DNA of 64,000 nucleotides, from NCBI GenBank assembly GCA_024137785.1, contig JAHRHZ010000004.1, positions 24,349,432-24,413,431 on the forward strand. The letters run 5' to 3'. How positions within the stretch are numbered: the stretch's first letter is position 1; every line of letters begins with the position of its first letter. This DNA comes from Ginglymostoma cirratum. Its lineage: Eukaryota. Positions 2,205 through 63,880 of this stretch are shown here, piece by piece. Position numbers and translations under genes: made by a program. The notes beneath the pieces are model-generated. The model worked only from the letters and a program-made list of their open reading frames with translations, did no database searches and was not told the origin of the DNA.

Positions 2205-2594
2205 TTTTTCTTCTGCTGCTCAGACAGTCCCTTGGGATTGAGAATGACCCCATATGGGTCTGAAGGGATTAAACAGTCCGATGCTGGACCTCGCACACCC
2301 TGCCACAAGGGCGGGGTGGAGAGTTGTGGCTGAAGAGGTAGGTGTGTGGGATGCTCAGATTTTCACATGTTTCCAAACCACTGGCTGCAGTGTTTTGCAT
2401 TTCTGACATTCTGCAATTTCTTACACCAGTCTGACTGTGAAAATTGTGTCCACTGTGCCTATTGATGGACAGAATCTGCATAGTCACCCCGGGAAGTGCC
2501 CTTCTGTCACTAGGAAGAGGTGATTGAGGAGAATGTTTGAAATCACCTGCCCTGACTGACAGCAAGGAGACCCCTCTATAGGAACCGCAGTTTC
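2205..2594 (-). mobile_element. RTE-clade LINE, RT fragment plus 3' tail (part 3 of a split element)
   Basis: Minus translation CGSYRGVSLLSV..ISNILLNHL..FCPSIGTVDTIFTVR resembles RTE RT (CGNYRGISLLS..GTVDMIF); RTE-like tail ggtcattctcaatcccaagggactg near 2225-2250. Confidence 0.8.
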
Positions 2595-5352
2595 TTTTTT
2601 ATTCATTTGTGGGATGTGGGCGTCGCTGGCTGGCCAGTTTTATGTGTTGTTGGGGCTGCACCCATCCAGGCAAGTGGGGGTTATTCCATCACACTCCTGA
2701 CTTGTGCCTTGCAGATGGCAAATAGGCTTTGGGGAATCAGGATGTGGGTTACTCACTGCAGTATTCCCACTTCTGACCTGCTCTTGTCGCCACTGTGTTT
2801 ACGTGATGAGTCCAGTTGACTTTCTGCTCAGTGATAACCCACAGGGTTCAGTGATGGTAACACCATTGAATGTCAAGGGGTGGCGGTTAGATTGTCTCTT
2901 ACTGGTGATGGTCATAGCCTGGCATTTGTGTGGCACGATTGTCACTTGCCAGTTGTCAGCTCAAGCCTGGATATTGTCCGAATCTTGTTGCATTTGAACA
3001 TGCACTGCTTCAGTGTCTGAGGAGTCATTGAATGGTGCTCATCATGGTGGAGGAAGGTCATTGATGAAGCAGCTGAAGCTGATTGGGCCTAGGACACTAC
3101 CCTGAGGAACTCCTGCAGAGATATCTTGGAGCTGAGATGACTGACATCCAAAAACCACAAGCATCTTCCTCTGTGTCCAACCACTGGAGAGTTTGCCCTT
3201 GATACCCATTGATTCCAGATTTGCTAGGGTTCCTCATTGCCACACTTCAGCGAATGCAGCCTTGATATCAAGGGCTGTCACTCTCACCTCACCTCTAGAA
3301 TTCAGCTCTTTTGTCTGTGTTTGGACCAAGGCTGTAATGAGGTCAGGAGCTGAGTGGCCCTGGTGGAACCCAAACTGGGCATCACTGAGCAGGTTATTGC
3401 TGAGCAGGTGCTGCTTGATAGCACTGTTGATGGCATCATCCATCACTTTACTGATGATCAACAGTAGACTGATGGGGCGGTAATTGCCAGGTTATATTTG
3501 TCCTGCTTTTTATGTTCAGGACATGCCTGGGTAATTTTTCACATTGTTGTGCAGATGCCAGTGTTGTAACTGTACTGGAAGAGCTTGGCTAGGGGAGTAG
3601 CAAATTCTGAAGCACGAGTCTTTAAGGGCCCGTAGCCTTTACAGTATCCAGTGTCTCAGACTGTTTCTTGATGTCACGTGGAGTGAATCGAAATGGCTGA
3701 AGACTGGTACCTGTAATGCTGGGGACCACTGGAGGATGCCGAGATGCATCATCCACTCAGTATTTCTGGCTGAAGATTGCTCTGAATGCTTCAATCTTAT
3801 CTTTTGCACTGATGTGTTCAGCTCTTCCATCATTGAGGATGTAGATATTTGAGGAGCCTCCTCCTCCAGTGAGTTGTTTAATTGTCCACCACCATTCACG
3901 ACTGGATGTGGCAGGACTACAGAGCTTAGATCTGATCTGTTGGTTGTGGGATCCCTTAGCTCTGTCTATCATTTGCTCCATATGCTGTTTGGCATGCAAG
4001 TAGTCCTGTTTGGTAGCTTTACCAGGTTGACACGCCATCTTCAGGTCTGCCTAGTGCTGCTGCTGGCATCCCCTCCTGCATTGGCTTGATGATATGGTTG
4101 AATGGGGGATATGCCAGGCCATAAGATTACAGATTGGGCTGGAGTACAATTCTGCTCCTGTTGATGGCCTACAGCACCTCATGGATGCTCAGTATTGATT
4201 TGCTAGATCTGTTTGAAGTCTGTCCCATTTAGCACGGTGATAGTGCCACACAACACGCTGGAGGTTATTTTCAATATGAAGGTAGGACTTCGTCTCCACA
4301 AGGACTGTGCGATAGTCACTCTTACCGATACCGTCATGGACAGATGCAACTGCAGCTGGCAGATTGGTAAGGATGGGGTCAAGTTTTTCCCTCTTGTTGG
4401 TTCCCTCACCACCTGCTGCAGACACCAGTCTAGCAGCTATGTCCGTTAGGACCCAACCAGCTCGATCAGTAGTATAGCTGCCGAGCCACTCTTAGTGGTG
4501 GACATTGAAATTCCCACACTCATAGTATATTTTGTGCCCTTGCCAGCCTCAGTGCTTCCTCTAAGTGTTGAAGAAGCGCATGAAGAAGTACAGGTTCACC
4601 AGCTGAGGGAGGATAGTTTGAGGTAATTGTCAGGAGGTTTCCTTGCCCATGTTTAACCTGAAGCCGTGAGACTTCATGGAGCCAGGTCAGTATTGAGAAC
4701 TCCCAAAGCAACTCCCTCCTGACTATATACCACTGTGTCACCACCTCTACTGGGTCTGTCCTGCCAGTGAGATAGGACATATCCAGGGATGGTGATGGTG
4801 GTGTCTGGGACATTGTCTGTAAGGTACGATTCTGTGAGTATGACCATGTCAGGCTGTTACTTGACTAGTCTGTGAGACAGCTCTCCCAATTTTGACACTA
4901 GCCCCCAGATGTTGGTGAGGAGGACTTTTCAGGGTTGACAGGACTGTTTCTGTCATAGTCTTTTCCAGTGCCTAGGTCGATCTGTCAGGTGATCCATCTG
5001 ATTTTAGTTCTTTGAGACCTAGTAGCAAATGGTACAACTAAATGGCTTGCTATGTCAATTCTGAGGGCAATTGAGAGTCAACCACATTTCTGGGGTCTGG
5101 AGTCACATGTAGGCCAAATTAACCAAGGATGGCAGTTTCCTTTCCTGAAGGCATTCGTGAACCAGATGGGTTTTCTTTCCCAACAGTCACCAATAATTTC
5201 ATGGTCATCAATAGATTCTTAATTCCAGATTTTATTTTGTCTTGAATTGTCTTTAGTCATGGCAGGATTCGAACCCAGGTCTGTAGAACATTAGCTATGT
5301 TCCTGGACTAACAATCTTGTGATAATACCACTGGGACACCACCTTACCTTAA
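2595..5352 (-). mobile_element. Decayed CR1/L2-group LINE (endonuclease + RT) with tRNA-derived 5' head and no ORF1
   Basis: EN start LLTNIWGL..PDMVILTESYL (~4925-4820); TRGKNL and GKSDY motifs; RT QFGFHQGHSAPDL, ALDIKAAF, GVPQGSVLGP..FINDLP; catalytic xADD segment deleted; B box at 5265-5275; stops and frameshifts. Confidence 0.9.
5265..5338 (-). promoter_or_regulatory. Pol III type-2 internal promoter (A and B boxes) of the LINE head
   Basis: Minus strand tgtcccagtgg (A-box-like, 5338-5328) and ggttcgaatcc (consensus B box, 5275-5265). Confidence 0.7.
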
Positions 5353-6180
5353 AGTTTCATCTCTTTTCTTGAAGATGGTCACAATCATAGCACTTTGGAG
5401 ATCTCCTGGTATGCTTTCCTCCTTCCATATAAAGAAGATGATGTCATACGTTTCTACCAAGAGAGCGTCTGTACAATATTCCAGTCTTTTGGTGAGGATT
5501 CCATCAACACTGGCAGCCTTGATGGTTCTCAGCCAACAGGTGGCCTTTCCAACCTCATGTCTGTCTGAGGTTATGCTGCAATGGTGGTAAGGTAATATGA
5601 TGTGGGATATGGCCAAATGTAACCACATCAAGGGCTGAGTCTTGGTTGGGGAGATGCTCAAATTGCTCCTTCTAATGAGTTCTGAATGACTGCCTGTCTT
5701 TGATGAGTGCCTCTCCATTCTTCCCTCTCAGTGGGATATGCCCTAGGCTGATCGGACCATCGATAATACTAACTGCTGATGAATGGGCAACGTTCTTGTA
5801 GACAAGTTATTTAATTTCCTGCATTCTTTCCTCCCACCATCTGTTCTTTATGTCATTGGATTTTTTTTTCCCATTGGACCTCATTTGCCAGTAGAGCTGC
5901 TTGCTTTCCCTTGCGTTGTGATGGTGTTTTTGCAGCTGCTGACGTTTTTGGGTGGGCTGATGGTGGTAGTCGCCTGGATTAGGTGATGGCTGGTCTGACA
6001 GTCATCAGCTCCTGTCATTGCACAGGTGACGTGAACATCCTTGTGATCCCTCGCTTGGATGAAGGTAGTGTTGTCACAACAGACTCGAGTAGCAGGAGTT
6101 GAGAGTGTTGCCATGAGGCCCTGAATTTTTCTCTCTGACAAATAGAGTATTTGTTCTGCCCAGACCATAGTGGCAGTTTG
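5353..6180 (-). mobile_element. RTE-clade LINE ORF fragment (part 2)
   Basis: KAASVDGI..IWKEESIPGDLQSAMIVTIFKKRD and GADDCQTSHHLI (RTE GADCWTDHRLI-like). Confidence 0.85.
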
Positions 6181-6199
6181 ATCAGGAGGAGAACCACAA

Positions 6200-7565
6200 T
6201 AACGTAGAAGATAGGAGCCAGAGTAGGCCATTCGACACCTTGAGCCTGCTCCGCCATTCAATATGGCTGATCATCGAGCTCAATACCCTAATCTCACCCA
6301 CCCCTATACCCGTTGATTCCTTTAGCCACAAGAACAAATCTACCTCCTTGCTGAAAGCACATAATGTTTTGGCCTCAACTACTTTCTGTGGAAGTGAATT
6401 CCACAGCTCACCACTCTCTGGGTGAATAAATTTCTCCTCATCTCAGTCCTAAAAGGTTCACTCCTTATCCTTAAACTAAAACCCCTGATTCTGGACTCCA
6501 CCACCATTGGGAACATCCTTCCTGCGTCTAACCTGTCTAGTCTTGTTACAATTTTATAAGTTTATATCAAATTCCTACCTCCACCCCCATTCATTTCAAC
6601 TCTAGTGAACACAATCCTGACTGAATCAATTTCTCCTCATACACCATCTCAGATAAACCTTCACTGCATTTCCTCTACAGCAAGAATAATCTTCCTCAGA
6701 TGGAGTGACCAAAACTATACACAATATTCTAGGTGTGGCCACACCAAGGCCCTGTATAATTGCAGTAAGTCATCCTTGTTCCTGCACTTGAATCCTCTTG
6801 CTAGAGGTTTGCATTCTCACCTCCCTGCTGTACCTGCGCACTTACTTTCAGCAATTGGTGCACGAGGACGCCCAGGTCTTGTTGAACATTCCCCTCTCTC
6901 AATTTGCAGCCATTCAAAGTGGATAACCTCACATTTATCCATATTATACTGCATCTGCCATAGGATTGCCTCCCACTCAGCCTGTCCAAATCACATTGCA
7001 ACGTTGCTGCATCCTCCTTACAGCTGACCCTTCCACCCAGCCTGATGTCATCTGCAAATTTTGAGATATAACATTTTGTTCCCTTGTCTAAATCATTAAC
7101 ATATATTGGGAAAAGCTAGAATGCTGGCACAGATTCCTGCAGTATCCCCACTAGTCACTGCCTGCCATTCAGGAAAAGACCCATGTATTTCTACCCTTTG
7201 CTTCCTGTCTGCTAACTAATTTTCTCTCCATCTCAATATGCTACACCAATCACATTAGTTTTACACATTAATCTCTTTTGTGGGATTTTGCCAAAAGCCT
7301 TCTGAAAGTCCAAACAAATTGCATCCATTGATTCACCTGATCAACTCTGCTGCTTACATCTGCAAAGAATTCCAACAGATTTGTCAAACATGATTTTCCT
7401 TTTGTAAATCCATATGACTATGCCTAATTCTATGAATATTTTTAAGTGCTGTGCTACAAAGTTCTTGATAATGGACTTTAGCATCTTCCCCACTACCGAC
7501 GTCAGACTCACTGGCCTATAGCTCCCGGTTTTCTCTCTACCTCCACTTTTTAAATAGTGAGGTTA
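6200..7565 (-). mobile_element. CR1/HER1-type LINE fragment nested in the RTE element
   Basis: LQCDLDRL, QQDLGVLVH motifs; FADD-like (tcatctgcaaa); typical CR1 3' tail at 6200-6280. Confidence 0.9.
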
Positions 7566-7619
7566 CACTCCATTGGTGTTTGCCTTGCTTATAGCTTCCT
7601 TACCAGTCATGTATTCCTC

Positions 7620-8220
7620 ACAACTCTGGCATTGAAATCACTAAGGAGAATGAACTTGTTTCCCTTTGGGTTACAGGACAACGATAGGAGTATAACCCTC
7701 TTGGGTCACGTCCACAGTTGCTCCTAGGCCCAGGGAGGATGCACTGACAGTTGCGGTGTACTGATTCTGCATTATCATGAGTCAAAGAGTCATGAGACAC
7801 TTATTTATACAAATAGGGGTAGCGCGGCTCACTGAGATGGTCAACTAGCCTGTTTTTTTATGGTGAAACCAATCCCATGGAGATAGCATTCTTCCTCAGG
7901 TTTACCTTTCCGAACGAATGTGTATCCAACTCCTTGTTCTTTTAGCTGACCTTCTCCTGCTGCCAGGTCTCACTCAGGACAATATTGTCAACACCATAAT
8001 GCTGGCGTTCCCGAGCTATGGTAACGGTGTAACTCACAGATCTGTCACTGCTGGGGATGTTCATGTGTTTGCTGAAATTCCACTTCCCAAACTTCATTTT
8101 TGAGGGGATGAAGGTTCTTTGTGTTTGGGTTCTTTAACATGGGGGAGCTGGTGCCCACCAACTACCACATGGTGCTGGCAGAGCCAAGTTTGTGTCCCAT
8201 GGCAGGGAAGGTTGAAAAGA
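7620..8220 (-). mobile_element. RTE-clade LINE 5' part, endonuclease N-terminus (part 1)
   Basis: Minus translation MKFGKWNF..IARERQHYGVDNIVLSETW..QLKEQGVGYTFVRKGKPEEECYLHGIGFTIK, typical of the RTE APE domain. Confidence 0.85.
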
Positions 8221-22729: not shown

Positions 22730-23360
22730 TCATTTTTGTGCCTTCATGATATGGAATATGGGTAGATCACTAGCTAGGCTAGCATTTATTGCCCATTACA
22801 ATTTGGCGAGCTCCCTTCTTGAACAGCTACAGTCCACATGGCATAGGTACACCCATAGTGCTGTTAAGATGGGAATTCCAGAATTTTAAGCCAGTGACAA
22901 TGAAGGAACAACTACATAGTTCCAAGTTAGTATCATATGTGTCTCAGAGGGGAACTTGTATGTTGCTATACTCCCATGCTTCCGCTGCCCTTCATCTGCC
23001 ACATGATGGAGGTCTTCAGTTTGGAAGGTGCTGTGTGACAAGCCTCAGTGAGTTGCTGCTTTGCATTTTGCATATGGTACACCCTGCTGCCACTGTGGTG
23101 GAAGGAGTGAACATTTAATTTAAATGGACCAAGTGTCAGTCAGGCTGGGTTCTTTGCTTTAAGTGGTGCTGAGTTCTGGAACCACACTTGAGTCAAGTGG
23201 AGGATAGTCCATCACACTGCTGACTTGTGTCCTGTAGCTGGTAGACGGGTGGTGGAGAGTGAGGAGGTGAGTTACTGTCCTAAAAACACTTCGTATCTGT
23301 TCTTGTAGCTGTGGTATTTATATGGCTGACCCAGTTCAGTTTTTGGTCATTAGTGATCTT
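22730..23360 (-). mobile_element. 3' fragment of the same LINE family as 2595-5352
   Basis: agcatttattgcccat tail; tccatcacactgctgacttgtg matches 2685-2706. Confidence 0.8.
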
Positions 23361-23429
23361 CACGTTCCCCCTGTTTCAGTATAACAAACTAACATCAATG
23401 TATGATACGGCTAACAATATGTGAATAAC

Positions 23430-23699: not shown

Positions 23700-24125
23700 G
23701 TTGCACTTTCCATTTATCCTCTATTATGTTATGGAATACATCACCAATGCTCAGCAAAAGCAGTGTGTACTATTTACAAGATGCACTGCAGAATTCACCA
23801 AAGATCCTCAGACACCACCTTCCAAATCCATGACCTCTTCCGTCTAAAAGGACAAAGGCAGCTGATACATGGTAAGGCCACCACCTGCAAATTCCCCTCC
23901 AAGCCACTCACCATCCTGATTTAGAAATAGACCACCATTCCTTCACTGTTGCTGAGTCAAATTCCTGGAATTCCCTCCCTAATGGCATCATAGGTCAATC
24001 CACAGGAGGTAGACTGCAGCGGTTGAAGAAGGCAGCTCACCATCACCTTTCCGAGGGCAACTAGGGATGGGTTAAAAACTGTTAGCCAGGCCAGCAATAC
24101 TCACATCCCACAAATTAATCAAAGA
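23700..24125 (+). mobile_element. 3' fragment of the same LINE family as 2595-5352
   Basis: Ends gagggcaactagggatggg..gccaggccagcaatactcacatcccacaaa, antisense to 2600-2637. Confidence 0.8.
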
Positions 24126-38629: not shown

Positions 38630-39010
38630 CTTTTTAATTAATTCATGGGATGTGGACATTACTAGTTCAGCCACTATTTATTGCCATTGCCCACAGGGCG
38701 TTTAAGAGTCAACAACATTTCTGTGGGTCACAACAGTTAGGCCAACTAAGTAAGGATGACATATTTCTTTGCCTGAAGGACATTAGTGAACTAAATGGGT
38801 TTTTATGATGATTGGTAGCGGTGACATACTCATAGAGTCACTCTGCATGAAAATAGGCCCTTCGGCCCAACTCCTCCATGCCTCTGGTTGCCATAGTCAC
38901 CTTTATATTCCAGATTTTATTGATTCTAAATTTCGCCATCTGACGTGGTGGAATTTGAACCCATGATCCCAGAACATATGTCTACAGCTCTAGATTATTG
39001 GTCCAGTGAT
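38630..39010 (-). mobile_element. tRNA-headed SINE (family of 60950-61300), interrupted by a CR1 tail piece
   Basis: attcatgggatgtggacatt..ttaagagtcaacaacatt..cattagtgaac..gaatttgaaccc. Confidence 0.8.
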
Positions 39011-57319: not shown

Positions 57320-58320
57320 AAGAATCTAATAAATCATGGCTGACTTAGTTCAGCTCCACCTTGCTGCCGTATTCCTCCGAGGTTTTAAGAAATTACAAAT
57401 ATTTCTTACTCTACTGCTTCTGTCATACCACTGCCTTCAAAGATCTATGTTCATGAACACCTCCCTTTCCCCCAAGTCCCTCTGTTCCTGTCCACCCTTG
57501 AGAACAGTGTTATTTTGGCTATATTGTCCCTGTCAACCCATTCTGCCAAAATCTGTCAGCTCACACTTCTCCATCCATCTGCCATCTTCTCAGCATTTAC
57601 TTTGCCGAGTCCCTCAAGAATTTAGCAGATCATCTCATTCTGCTAAATTCCAAGGAACGTAAGCCAACTCCATTCAATCTCCCAATAGGACAATCCTCAG
57701 GAGGCAGTCTCGTTAATCTTCACTGCACTCCCTTTAGGGACCATATGCCCTTCTTTAGGTGAGGAGACTAAAACTGCAGTGTGGCCTTCCTGATACACTG
57801 TACAATGTTTTAAAAAATTCACTCATGGGATGTGGACATCTCTGGCTAGTCAAAATATATTGCCCACCCCCAGTTTCCTTTGAGAAGGTGGTGATGAGCT
57901 ACAGTCCATGGGCTCTAGGTAACTCCACAATACATTTAGGGAGGGAGTTCCAGGATTTTGACCCAGCGAGATTTAAAGGAACAGCAATATATTTTCAAGT
58001 CAGGAGGGTGAGTGGCTTGGAGGAGAACTGTTTAATTCCCTTTGTTGCAGACACTGACATGCCACTCCATCTTAACTGCTTACTGTTCCCACATGCTCAA
58101 TTTCTGTGCATCATGTACAAGGCCACTCAAGTCTTCCTCAATGCAAACGTTTCTCAATCATTTAAAGGGAATGCTCAAATTTTGCTTTTCCTATCTTATA
58201 TCATCATGTTGAATTCCATCTGCCATGTCCTTACCTACTTGCCCACTCTGTCAATGTCATTCTGCAGCCTCTTTGTGTCTGTGTCAGTTTTTTTTTCCCC
58301 CACCAAACATTGTATCAGGA
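57320..58320 (-). mobile_element. Mosaic of decayed CR1 pieces with the tail of the tRNA-headed LINE family at ~57815-58030
   Basis: ttcactcatgggatgtggacatc..gagaaggtggtgatgagc..gggagttccaggattttgacccag. Confidence 0.65.
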
Positions 58321-60949: not shown

Positions 60950-61300
60950 CTTTTATTCATTCATAGGATGAGAGCATTGCTGGCTGGGCCAGCATTTATT
61001 GCCCATCCCTAATTGCCCAGAGGGCAGTTAAGTGTCAACCACATTGCTGTGGGCCTGGAGTCACATATAGGCCAGACCGGATAAGGATGGAGCTTCCTTC
61101 CATTAGTGAACCAAATGAGCTTTTTCCCTGACAATTGGCAATCGATTCATGGTCATCATTAATTCCAGATTAATCTTAATTCTGAATTTTTGTCGAATTC
61201 AAATTTCACCATGGCAGGATTTGAACCTGCATTCCCAGAACATTACACAGGACTCTGGATTAACAGTCCAGCAATAATACCATTAGGTCATCACCTCCCC
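60950..61300 (-). mobile_element. Full-length tRNA-headed SINE sharing head and tail with the LINE at 2595-5352
   Basis: 61020-61300 aligns to 5062-5343; 60950-61000 aligns to 2595-2643; core resembles the Meta/MESC SINE domain as recalled. Confidence 0.88.
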
Positions 61301-63560: not shown

Positions 63561-63687
63561 CTGTTTGCTACATTTTTGAGAGAGCACAAAATATATTTGG
63601 GATCATCTGCTTCTACTCTGGTTACATTCGCATACCCTTTTACTGTGATGTGTATCCATGGCACCCTTCTGTATTGTAAATACCAAA

Positions 63688-63880
63688 CTTGTTCACTCAT
63701 GTCATTTAGTGACAGAAATCTACCAACCTTGCCTGGTCTGGCCTATATGGGACTCTAGACCCACAGCACTGTGGTTGAACCTCATCTACTCTCTGAAATG
63801 ACCTCTCAAGCCATTCAGTTCAAGGCCAGTTAGGGATGCTGACCTTGCCAATGACATCACATCTCATGAAAAAATAAAAC
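63688..63880 (+). mobile_element. SINE core and tail (family of 60950-61300)
   Basis: gttcactcatgtc..cctggtctggcctatatgggactctagacccacagc..caagccattcagttcaagg. Confidence 0.8.

Follow-up and report, generated by a model that had tools for sequence, protein, structure and literature searches.

In the standing account of retroelement expression, long interspersed nuclear elements (LINEs) are transcribed as messenger RNAs by RNA polymerase II (Pol II), and the products of RNA polymerase III (Pol III) are short and non-coding, as set out in the relevant portions of two reports (PMC10886601, PMC5786205). Chimeras in which a small-RNA head is joined to LINE parts are treated as non-coding in the corresponding portions of four reports (PMC5786205, PMC7245038, PMC4824008, PMC11481361), and the short interspersed nuclear elements (SINEs) that are built on bipartite RTE or Vingi LINEs are stated to be unable to encode protein (PMC5786205, PMC7245038). 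In sharks, SacSINE1 is described as having a tRNA head, a Deu body, and a tail in common with the LINE L2-2_CM (PMC5499810), while for R2 elements, which are made by Pol I, translation from an internal ribosome entry site (IRES) has been proposed (PMC2881922). The subject of this work is an element found in a stretch of 64,000 nucleotides from the shark Ginglymostoma cirratum (GenBank assembly GCA_024137785.1, contig JAHRHZ010000004.1, positions 24,349,432 to 24,413,431 of the forward strand), referred to here as the window: a decayed LINE copy on the minus strand, at 2595-5349, that begins with a tRNA-derived head. It is a dead copy of a 3.28-kb family with a single open reading frame (ORF), and the evidence gathered from its sequence and from its relatives makes it likely that the source elements of this family were transcribed by Pol III from the tRNA-Ser-like head and translated in a cap-independent manner.

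A search of the genome (4.36 Gb) with the window copy returned 37,037 first-look candidates, a figure that is not a copy number, of which 40 were scored, many of them matching the full query. A family majority sequence of 3,280 nt was built from 23 other copies, and the window copy is 85% identical to it. The family opens with a head that carries A and B boxes, followed by approximately 200 nt of body, a single 977-codon frame (stop to stop), and a tail with a short A-rich end, leaving no room for an ORF1; Pfam Exo_endo_phos_2 and RVT_1 both score above cut-off in family copies, and both domains lie in the one frame. In the window, all on the minus strand, the head occupies 5257-5349, a conserved body shared by the LINE and the SINEs of this genome 5036-5233, the single endonuclease and reverse-transcriptase (RT) frame 2644-5059, and a remnant of the 3' tail with its short A-rich end 2595-2637; nt 2827-3243 of the family are deleted, and the frame is broken by stops, frameshifts, and indels. 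The earlier note on this DNA had called the LINE tRNA-headed, and the head is indeed real: among 23 distinct tRNA sequences sampled from 30 loci of the same genome, its best alignment is with tRNA-Ser(GCT), with a z of 8.3 against shuffles, while ARAGORN and Rfam detected no tRNA in the LINE head. The A box, TGGCCTAGTGG in the family, lies 11 nt from the family 5' end, and at 5328-5338 in the window copy, where it carries two changes; the B box, GGTTCGAATCC, is intact at 5265-5275 (both on the minus strand), both being assigned by the box consensus. The body is termed Deu-like here, a tentative name that follows the published description of SacSINE1 (PMC5499810). The family combines the tRNA-derived, box-bearing 5' head that characterizes SINE2 elements with a length and coding capacity that are foreign to such short, non-coding elements, and it also presents a feature of autonomous LINEs of the apurinic/apyrimidinic endonuclease type in the CR1/L2 group, namely 5'-truncated copies that have a structured 3' tail in common; the intact tail folds as a stem-loop (z -3.6 in copy L002). 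Among the non-CpG variants that occur in one fifth or more of the copies, 42 are synonymous and 22 non-synonymous, whereas under neutrality synonymous changes would make up between a quarter and a third. This excess (42/64) shows that purifying selection acted on the frame in the source lineages, whose elements therefore made the protein.

Head, body, endonuclease-RT frame, and tail form one mobile unit. Among 29 copies picked solely by their similarity to the endonuclease start, three of which overlap loci retrieved earlier, 21 extend as far as the A box (in one case through a later insertion), three begin inside the head, and five are cut further in; their upstream flanks have nothing in common except for a single pair sharing 59 nt, and no alternative 5' end was found in this sample. 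The body-to-ORF junction is bridged by contigs from five of seven organisms (A, C, D, E, and F), with no common frame-changing indel at that point, and is not bridged in the pieces listed for organisms B and G. The window copy lies within an older element that received the whole LINE insertion head to tail, and that we take to be RTE-like on the basis of its protein motifs. The upstream half of this host (5352-6190) and its downstream half (2250-2592), both on the minus strand, are contiguous in the uninterrupted homologues L121 and L136, where they join with an overlap of approximately 0-1 nt, and it is because of this contiguity that the head, ORF, and tail of the window copy can be said to have arrived together. 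A 6-nt direct repeat flanking the copy was considered as a target-site duplication and dropped, since the homologues show only this minimal overlap at the host join; nor did the full-length copies that were checked show any target-site duplication. LINE and SINE copies also share their 5' boundary, 11 nt before the A box. When the head alone served as query, 24 of the 29 matches were SINEs and five were LINE copies, and the SINEs fall into types that hold family nt 1-292 (the typical form) or approximately 1-317, each fused to the final 63 nt of the LINE. In the window, whole or partial SINEs that have the LINE head or body in common are present at 60955-61300 (minus strand; nt 1-292 with the final 63 nt), 63678-63880 (plus), and 38692-38804 (minus).

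The sense strand of the copy had been reported in the earlier note as nearly free of runs of four or more T, the signal at which Pol III terminates, and the counts given there hold: the plus strand between 2600 and 5343 (2,744 nt) has one run of at least four A, AAAAA at 3150-3154, beside 15 T-runs of at least four, and the neighbouring CR1 3' fragment at 6200-7565 (minus strand, 1,366 nt), which served solely as a control, has six A-runs of 4. This contrast of one with six has a binomial P of 0.007 on length alone. Within the copy, the deficit of T4 is modest: where one run is observed, base shuffles give 5.4 (P 0.023) and dinucleotide shuffles 2.3 (P 0.32), and the weakness of this single-copy signal is the reason for which the test was moved to the level of the family. 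The only sense-strand T-run of the copy is itself a private mutation, the T5 at 3150-3154 having arisen, according to the alignment, through a G-to-T change with respect to the majority sequence that is specific to the window copy. Of all T4-free stretches in the window, whichever the strand, that on the minus strand from 3154 to 6450 is the longest (3,296 nt), the second measuring 1,297 nt, and it extends over the RTE-like fragment at 5352-6190, of which the earlier note had made no mention. In the two upstream RTE-like pieces TTTT is absent and TTT is not significantly low (4 against 6.3 in 5352-6190, P 0.20); a majority sequence for the host family could not be built, its copies being too diverged.

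At the family level, the purge of TTT is confined to the sense strand and is context-specific. On that strand, the majority sequence is free of both TTTT and TVTTT, the absence expected of a type-2 Pol III transcription unit, and has three runs of TTT, against 47 runs of three or more T on the antisense strand. The check that the earlier note had itself put forward, TTTT against a codon-shuffled expectation, does not bear it out (0 vs. 1.6 in the family ORF, P 0.16), and TTTT alone gives P 0.14 in dinucleotide shuffles and P 0.009 in base shuffles; it is the shorter run that carries the signal. The ORF has two TTT against 11.6 in codon shuffles (P 0.0003), in a test in which AAA, CCC, and GGG are not depleted, and under dinucleotide shuffling the count is 3 against 12.1, with none of 2,000 shuffles as low. 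TTT is the most under-represented of the 64 trinucleotides, and TTTT and TVTTT taken together are absent from the ORF where 3.5 would be expected (P 0.02). The choice of codons follows the same rule: synonymous codons end in T once in 21 cases before a codon starting with TT and in 154 of 460 cases elsewhere (P 0.004), VTN codons end in T in 0 of 23 cases before T and in 46 of 182 elsewhere (P 0.003), these two lists sharing some sites, and phenylalanine is encoded by TTC 16 times and by TTT once (1/17; P 0.013 against other NNY pairs). The depletion is real and specific, and stronger than was first shown; the selection for Pol III read-through that the earlier note had seen in it is supported in its direction by the TTT, combined TTTT and TVTTT, codon-context, and control results, although the TTTT evidence originally offered fails against codon shuffles.

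These controls also bear on the explanation that a compositional or mutational bias, in the form of low T, C-ending codons, and avoidance of TT, produced the pattern with no relation to transcription. The sense strand does have a T content of only 0.20, and TTTT does match codon and dinucleotide shuffles; TTT, however, is depleted under both shuffles, no other trinucleotide is as under-represented, and its avoidance depends on the neighbouring codons. Control families were rebuilt from 15-24 copies each. A family that we take to be Penelope-like has the same T content (0.198) and is undepleted, with 14 TTT where 16.7 would be expected and 7 TTTT in 2.2 kb, so that low T, to which the earlier note had ascribed part of the deficit, does not explain it. 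The comparison with other LINEs that it had called for gave the same result in three CR1 families, where TTT numbers 30 against 29.4, 24 against 25.4, and 23 against 25.4. In 75 metagenomic relatives, which remained from a contig scan that found 80 related loci at 35-47% identity after five with frames below 350 codons had been dropped, the ratio of observed to expected TTT ranges from 0.77 to 1.26, against 0.17 in the family, and all have TTTT, at 1.5 per kb or more. Dead copies of the family, assembled as a set of 102 pieces (181,551 nt, mean identity 90%), regain TTT, at 3.3 against 0.9 per kb, and TTTT up to 0.39 per kb, with A>T and G>T rates approximately equal at TTT-making and other sites; since TTT returns at about normal A>T and G>T rates, a genome-wide mutational block on TTT is unlikely. 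Bias as an explanation is largely refuted, and we regard it as very improbable.

Two families of the genome showed further features. The Penelope-like family (L069:2056-2880, L298-L312) is young, its copies being 94-97% identical, with a very C-rich sense strand (C 0.42) and a repeated linker rich in Ala, Thr, and Pro before the RT. A young CR1 family (L104:1924-3258, L172-L186) has copies that are 95-96% identical and an open RT frame, and is much younger than the tRNA-headed family.

A different possibility is that the head was captured from a SINE and acts as a Pol II promoter or as a passive 5' untranslated region (UTR), TTT being avoided for a reason at the level of the RNA, for which U-rich splice-acceptor tracts, cleavage-polyadenylation elements, and U-binding decay factors can be named. 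The mouse SINE B2 has Pol II promoter activity. An AATAAA-like motif ends the tail in some copies, that of the window included, which would suit such a route, as would the statement, in the relevant part of one report, that non-LTR (long terminal repeat) retrotransposons are Pol II products (PMC10886601). Avoidance at the RNA level, however, sits poorly with the pyrimidine tracts of eight or more, which are not depleted (7 vs. 4.4), and with the lack of any purge in the four other retroelement families of the genome or in the 75 relatives, and the coincidence of the LINE 5' end with that of the SINEs also counts against a Pol II start. The start of translation is a further difficulty. The first in-frame AUG of the long frame is codon 171, inside the endonuclease, and the first 300 nt of the family hold nine AUGs, all of them before the AUG at nt 346, which opens a conserved 35-codon frame in +1 (nt 346-453; approximately 5007-4896 in the window, where this AUG is mutated) that overlaps the start of the endonuclease; this arrangement is a poor fit to cap-dependent scanning. 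On these grounds we hold the Pol II explanation to be unlikely.

With regard to how the long frame is read, the CpGs at nt 357-414 are in the Arg-codon phase of that frame in five of five cases (37 of 57 in the ORF body), a phasing that would have a chance of 0.0006 were the short frame the coding one, and the peptide encoded there is basic and resembles the N-termini of the relatives. Because of this phasing and this peptide, translation of the long frame probably starts at an upstream, non-AUG site that precedes nt 357, and a frameshift or reinitiation by way of the 35-codon +1 frame may provide another route. It is at this point that a dual scheme has to be considered, in which full-length Pol III RNA is reverse-transcribed without needing to be translated itself, and the protein is made from capped Pol II RNAs of the host that extend across some copies. 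Such a scheme would account for the TTT purge and the sharp 5' end with no need of cap-independent translation, and copies are very numerous; nevertheless, the purifying selection on the frame is easier to understand if each RNA encodes its own protein, and a capped RNA made by read-through would be no better supplied with an in-frame AUG. We give this scheme even less credence than the Pol II explanation.

The preferred reading, Pol III transcription of the source elements followed by cap-independent translation, would operate as follows. TFIIIC and TFIIIB would place the Pol III start approximately 11 nt upstream of the A box, the same distance as in the sister SINEs, and Pol III would read through 3.3 kb, to stop at the first T-run in the flanking DNA. 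Selection would act on source copies: RNA from any that acquired TTTT, TVTTT, or a large number of leaky TTT sites would end short of the 3' stem-loop on which reverse transcription depends, and such a copy would leave no progeny. The shortest motifs with terminator function in HeLa tests are TTTT and TVTTT, according to the part of the report that deals with them (PMC8466645), and at 30 tRNA loci of this genome (L333-L362) the first terminator-like motif within 40 nt is TTTT in 15 and TVTTT in seven, with none in two. In a more speculative vein, translation of the uncapped RNA could begin internally and without an AUG, close to the 3' end of the Deu-like body, and the abundant SINEs that carry the first 292 or approximately 317 nt and the last 63 nt of the LINE could be its non-autonomous partners. 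The absence of an ORF1 would fit an RNA made by Pol III, since Pol III-made RNAs are reported to retrotranspose without ORF1 protein (PMC2666806). A stronger form of the proposal, tentative and in our view doubtful, is that of an "autonomous SINE", in which a single 3.3-kb Pol III transcript would serve both as template and as mRNA, ribosomes entering it at the Deu-like domain with no need of a cap or an AUG; if true, it would give a function to the long-unexplained conserved Deu domain and would make the Deu-type SINEs of this genome internal-deletion products of such a LINE.

A number of observations weigh against this reading. Bare TTT terminates only weakly in mammalian tests, as the same terminator study describes (PMC8466645), and for this reason the strongest signal requires either cumulative leakiness or nearness to TTTT; in the scheme proposed, approximately 20 expected weak sites would add up, each being one change away from a working terminator. 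TTTT alone is not significant against codon and dinucleotide shuffles, and in a looser, composition-aware resampling AAA is also low (39 vs. 52, P 0.0007), if far less so than TTT (2 vs. 17.7). All of the T-run evidence comes from one family majority sequence, and not from independent lineages. Among the dead copies, the C>T rate at TTT-making sites (0.040) is somewhat below the values with which it was compared (0.058 and 0.048), shared TTT-making variants (0 of 224 sites vs. 19 of 1,984) do not differ significantly (P 0.25), and the A and B boxes are no better kept than their surroundings, which is expected of neutral decay and is no proof of use. Consensus folding of head and body gave no covariation support, with a double change in five of 88 pairs, and the folding of three individual heads does not surpass that of their shuffles, so that neither result points to an IRES-like structure. 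Single-ORF LINEs without such a head exist, ZfL2-2 being an example (PMC4176376), and the translation mechanism suggested for the family RNA has the standing of a proposal.

The origin of these features can be approached through the RT tree, in which the family falls within a 25-row clade (100/100) that includes nine metagenomic relatives and stands apart from the CR1s of the genome; the tree had no named reference elements for CR1 proper, L2, or CR1-Zenon, and the clade is one of homologous ORFs, most full-length members being of approximately 930-1,060 aa. Since the family sits among metagenomic relatives, this position suggests that the head, the TTT purge, and the loss of the AUG are derived. 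A B-box-like match occurs in two of the 75 relatives and an A box before it in none, many of the contigs ending near the ORF start, and relaxed ARAGORN on these relatives returned noise only. A scan of viral contigs found no relative, a first protein search gave two weak matches, and searches with two diverged pieces (66-69% identity) retrieved mainly the main family, so that no independent headed subfamily was obtained.

In its surroundings, the copy is part of a nested insertion at 2250-8200 (minus strand), where RTE-like pieces at 7570-8200, 5352-6190, and 2250-2592 are split by the CR1 fragment and the tRNA-headed LINE. Further 3' fragments of the LINE family are present at 23739-24119 (plus strand, 85% identity), 57817-58029 (minus, 75%), and 22788-23363 (minus, 69%), the last of which may belong to an older relative of the family. 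The segment 21001-22000 is strongly G-skewed, with 426 G and 87 C on the plus strand.

A high-copy family with an enzyme of approximately 950 residues behind a tRNA promoter would, if the reading is true, break the rule that assigns LINEs to Pol II, and would represent a Pol III mRNA of several kilobases that occurs in nature; the family also makes testable the role of conserved SINE body domains such as Deu, and the manner in which SINE head, body, and tail are assembled. No title or abstract found describes a Pol III-headed autonomous LINE, and the family, which was not compared with Repbase or Dfam, may already have a database name. R2 elements are co-transcribed by Pol I at a fixed site in rDNA, with a different endonuclease and no promoter of their own, and in this they differ from the family. 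They resemble what is proposed here in being single-ORF non-LTR elements that depend on a polymerase other than Pol II and for which an IRES has been suggested, as the relevant part of the report puts it (PMC2881922). Cassandra, Helenus, and Ajax (TRIMp3) are likewise retrotransposons other than SINEs with a small-RNA-derived Pol III promoter (PMC10886601), but they are described there as non-autonomous LTR elements of 0.3-1.3 kb, whose autonomous partners are argued to need Pol II. The SINEs of this genome fit the description of the Deu-SINEs SacSINE1 and LmeSINE1, which in cartilaginous fishes join a tRNA-related head, bearing A and B boxes, to a Deu body and to a 3' tail that a LINE has in common with them (PMC5499810); by this description, L2-2_CM shares only the tail with its SINE, whereas the LINE studied here also has the SINE head and body before its ORF, a comparison made with published descriptions. 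The stringent zebrafish LINE ZfL2-2 has, like the family, one endonuclease-RT ORF and a 3' stem-loop tail, but it is of approximately 4.2 kb with a repeat-containing 5' UTR, and neither a tRNA head nor a purge of T-runs is described in the relevant portions of the report (PMC4176376). Finally, the SINEs built on bipartite RTE or Vingi LINEs share with the family the fusion of a small-RNA head to 5' and 3' parts of a LINE, as their descriptions indicate (PMC5786205, PMC7245038), but they are non-coding, whereas the family found in the window keeps a whole ORF that was once under selection.
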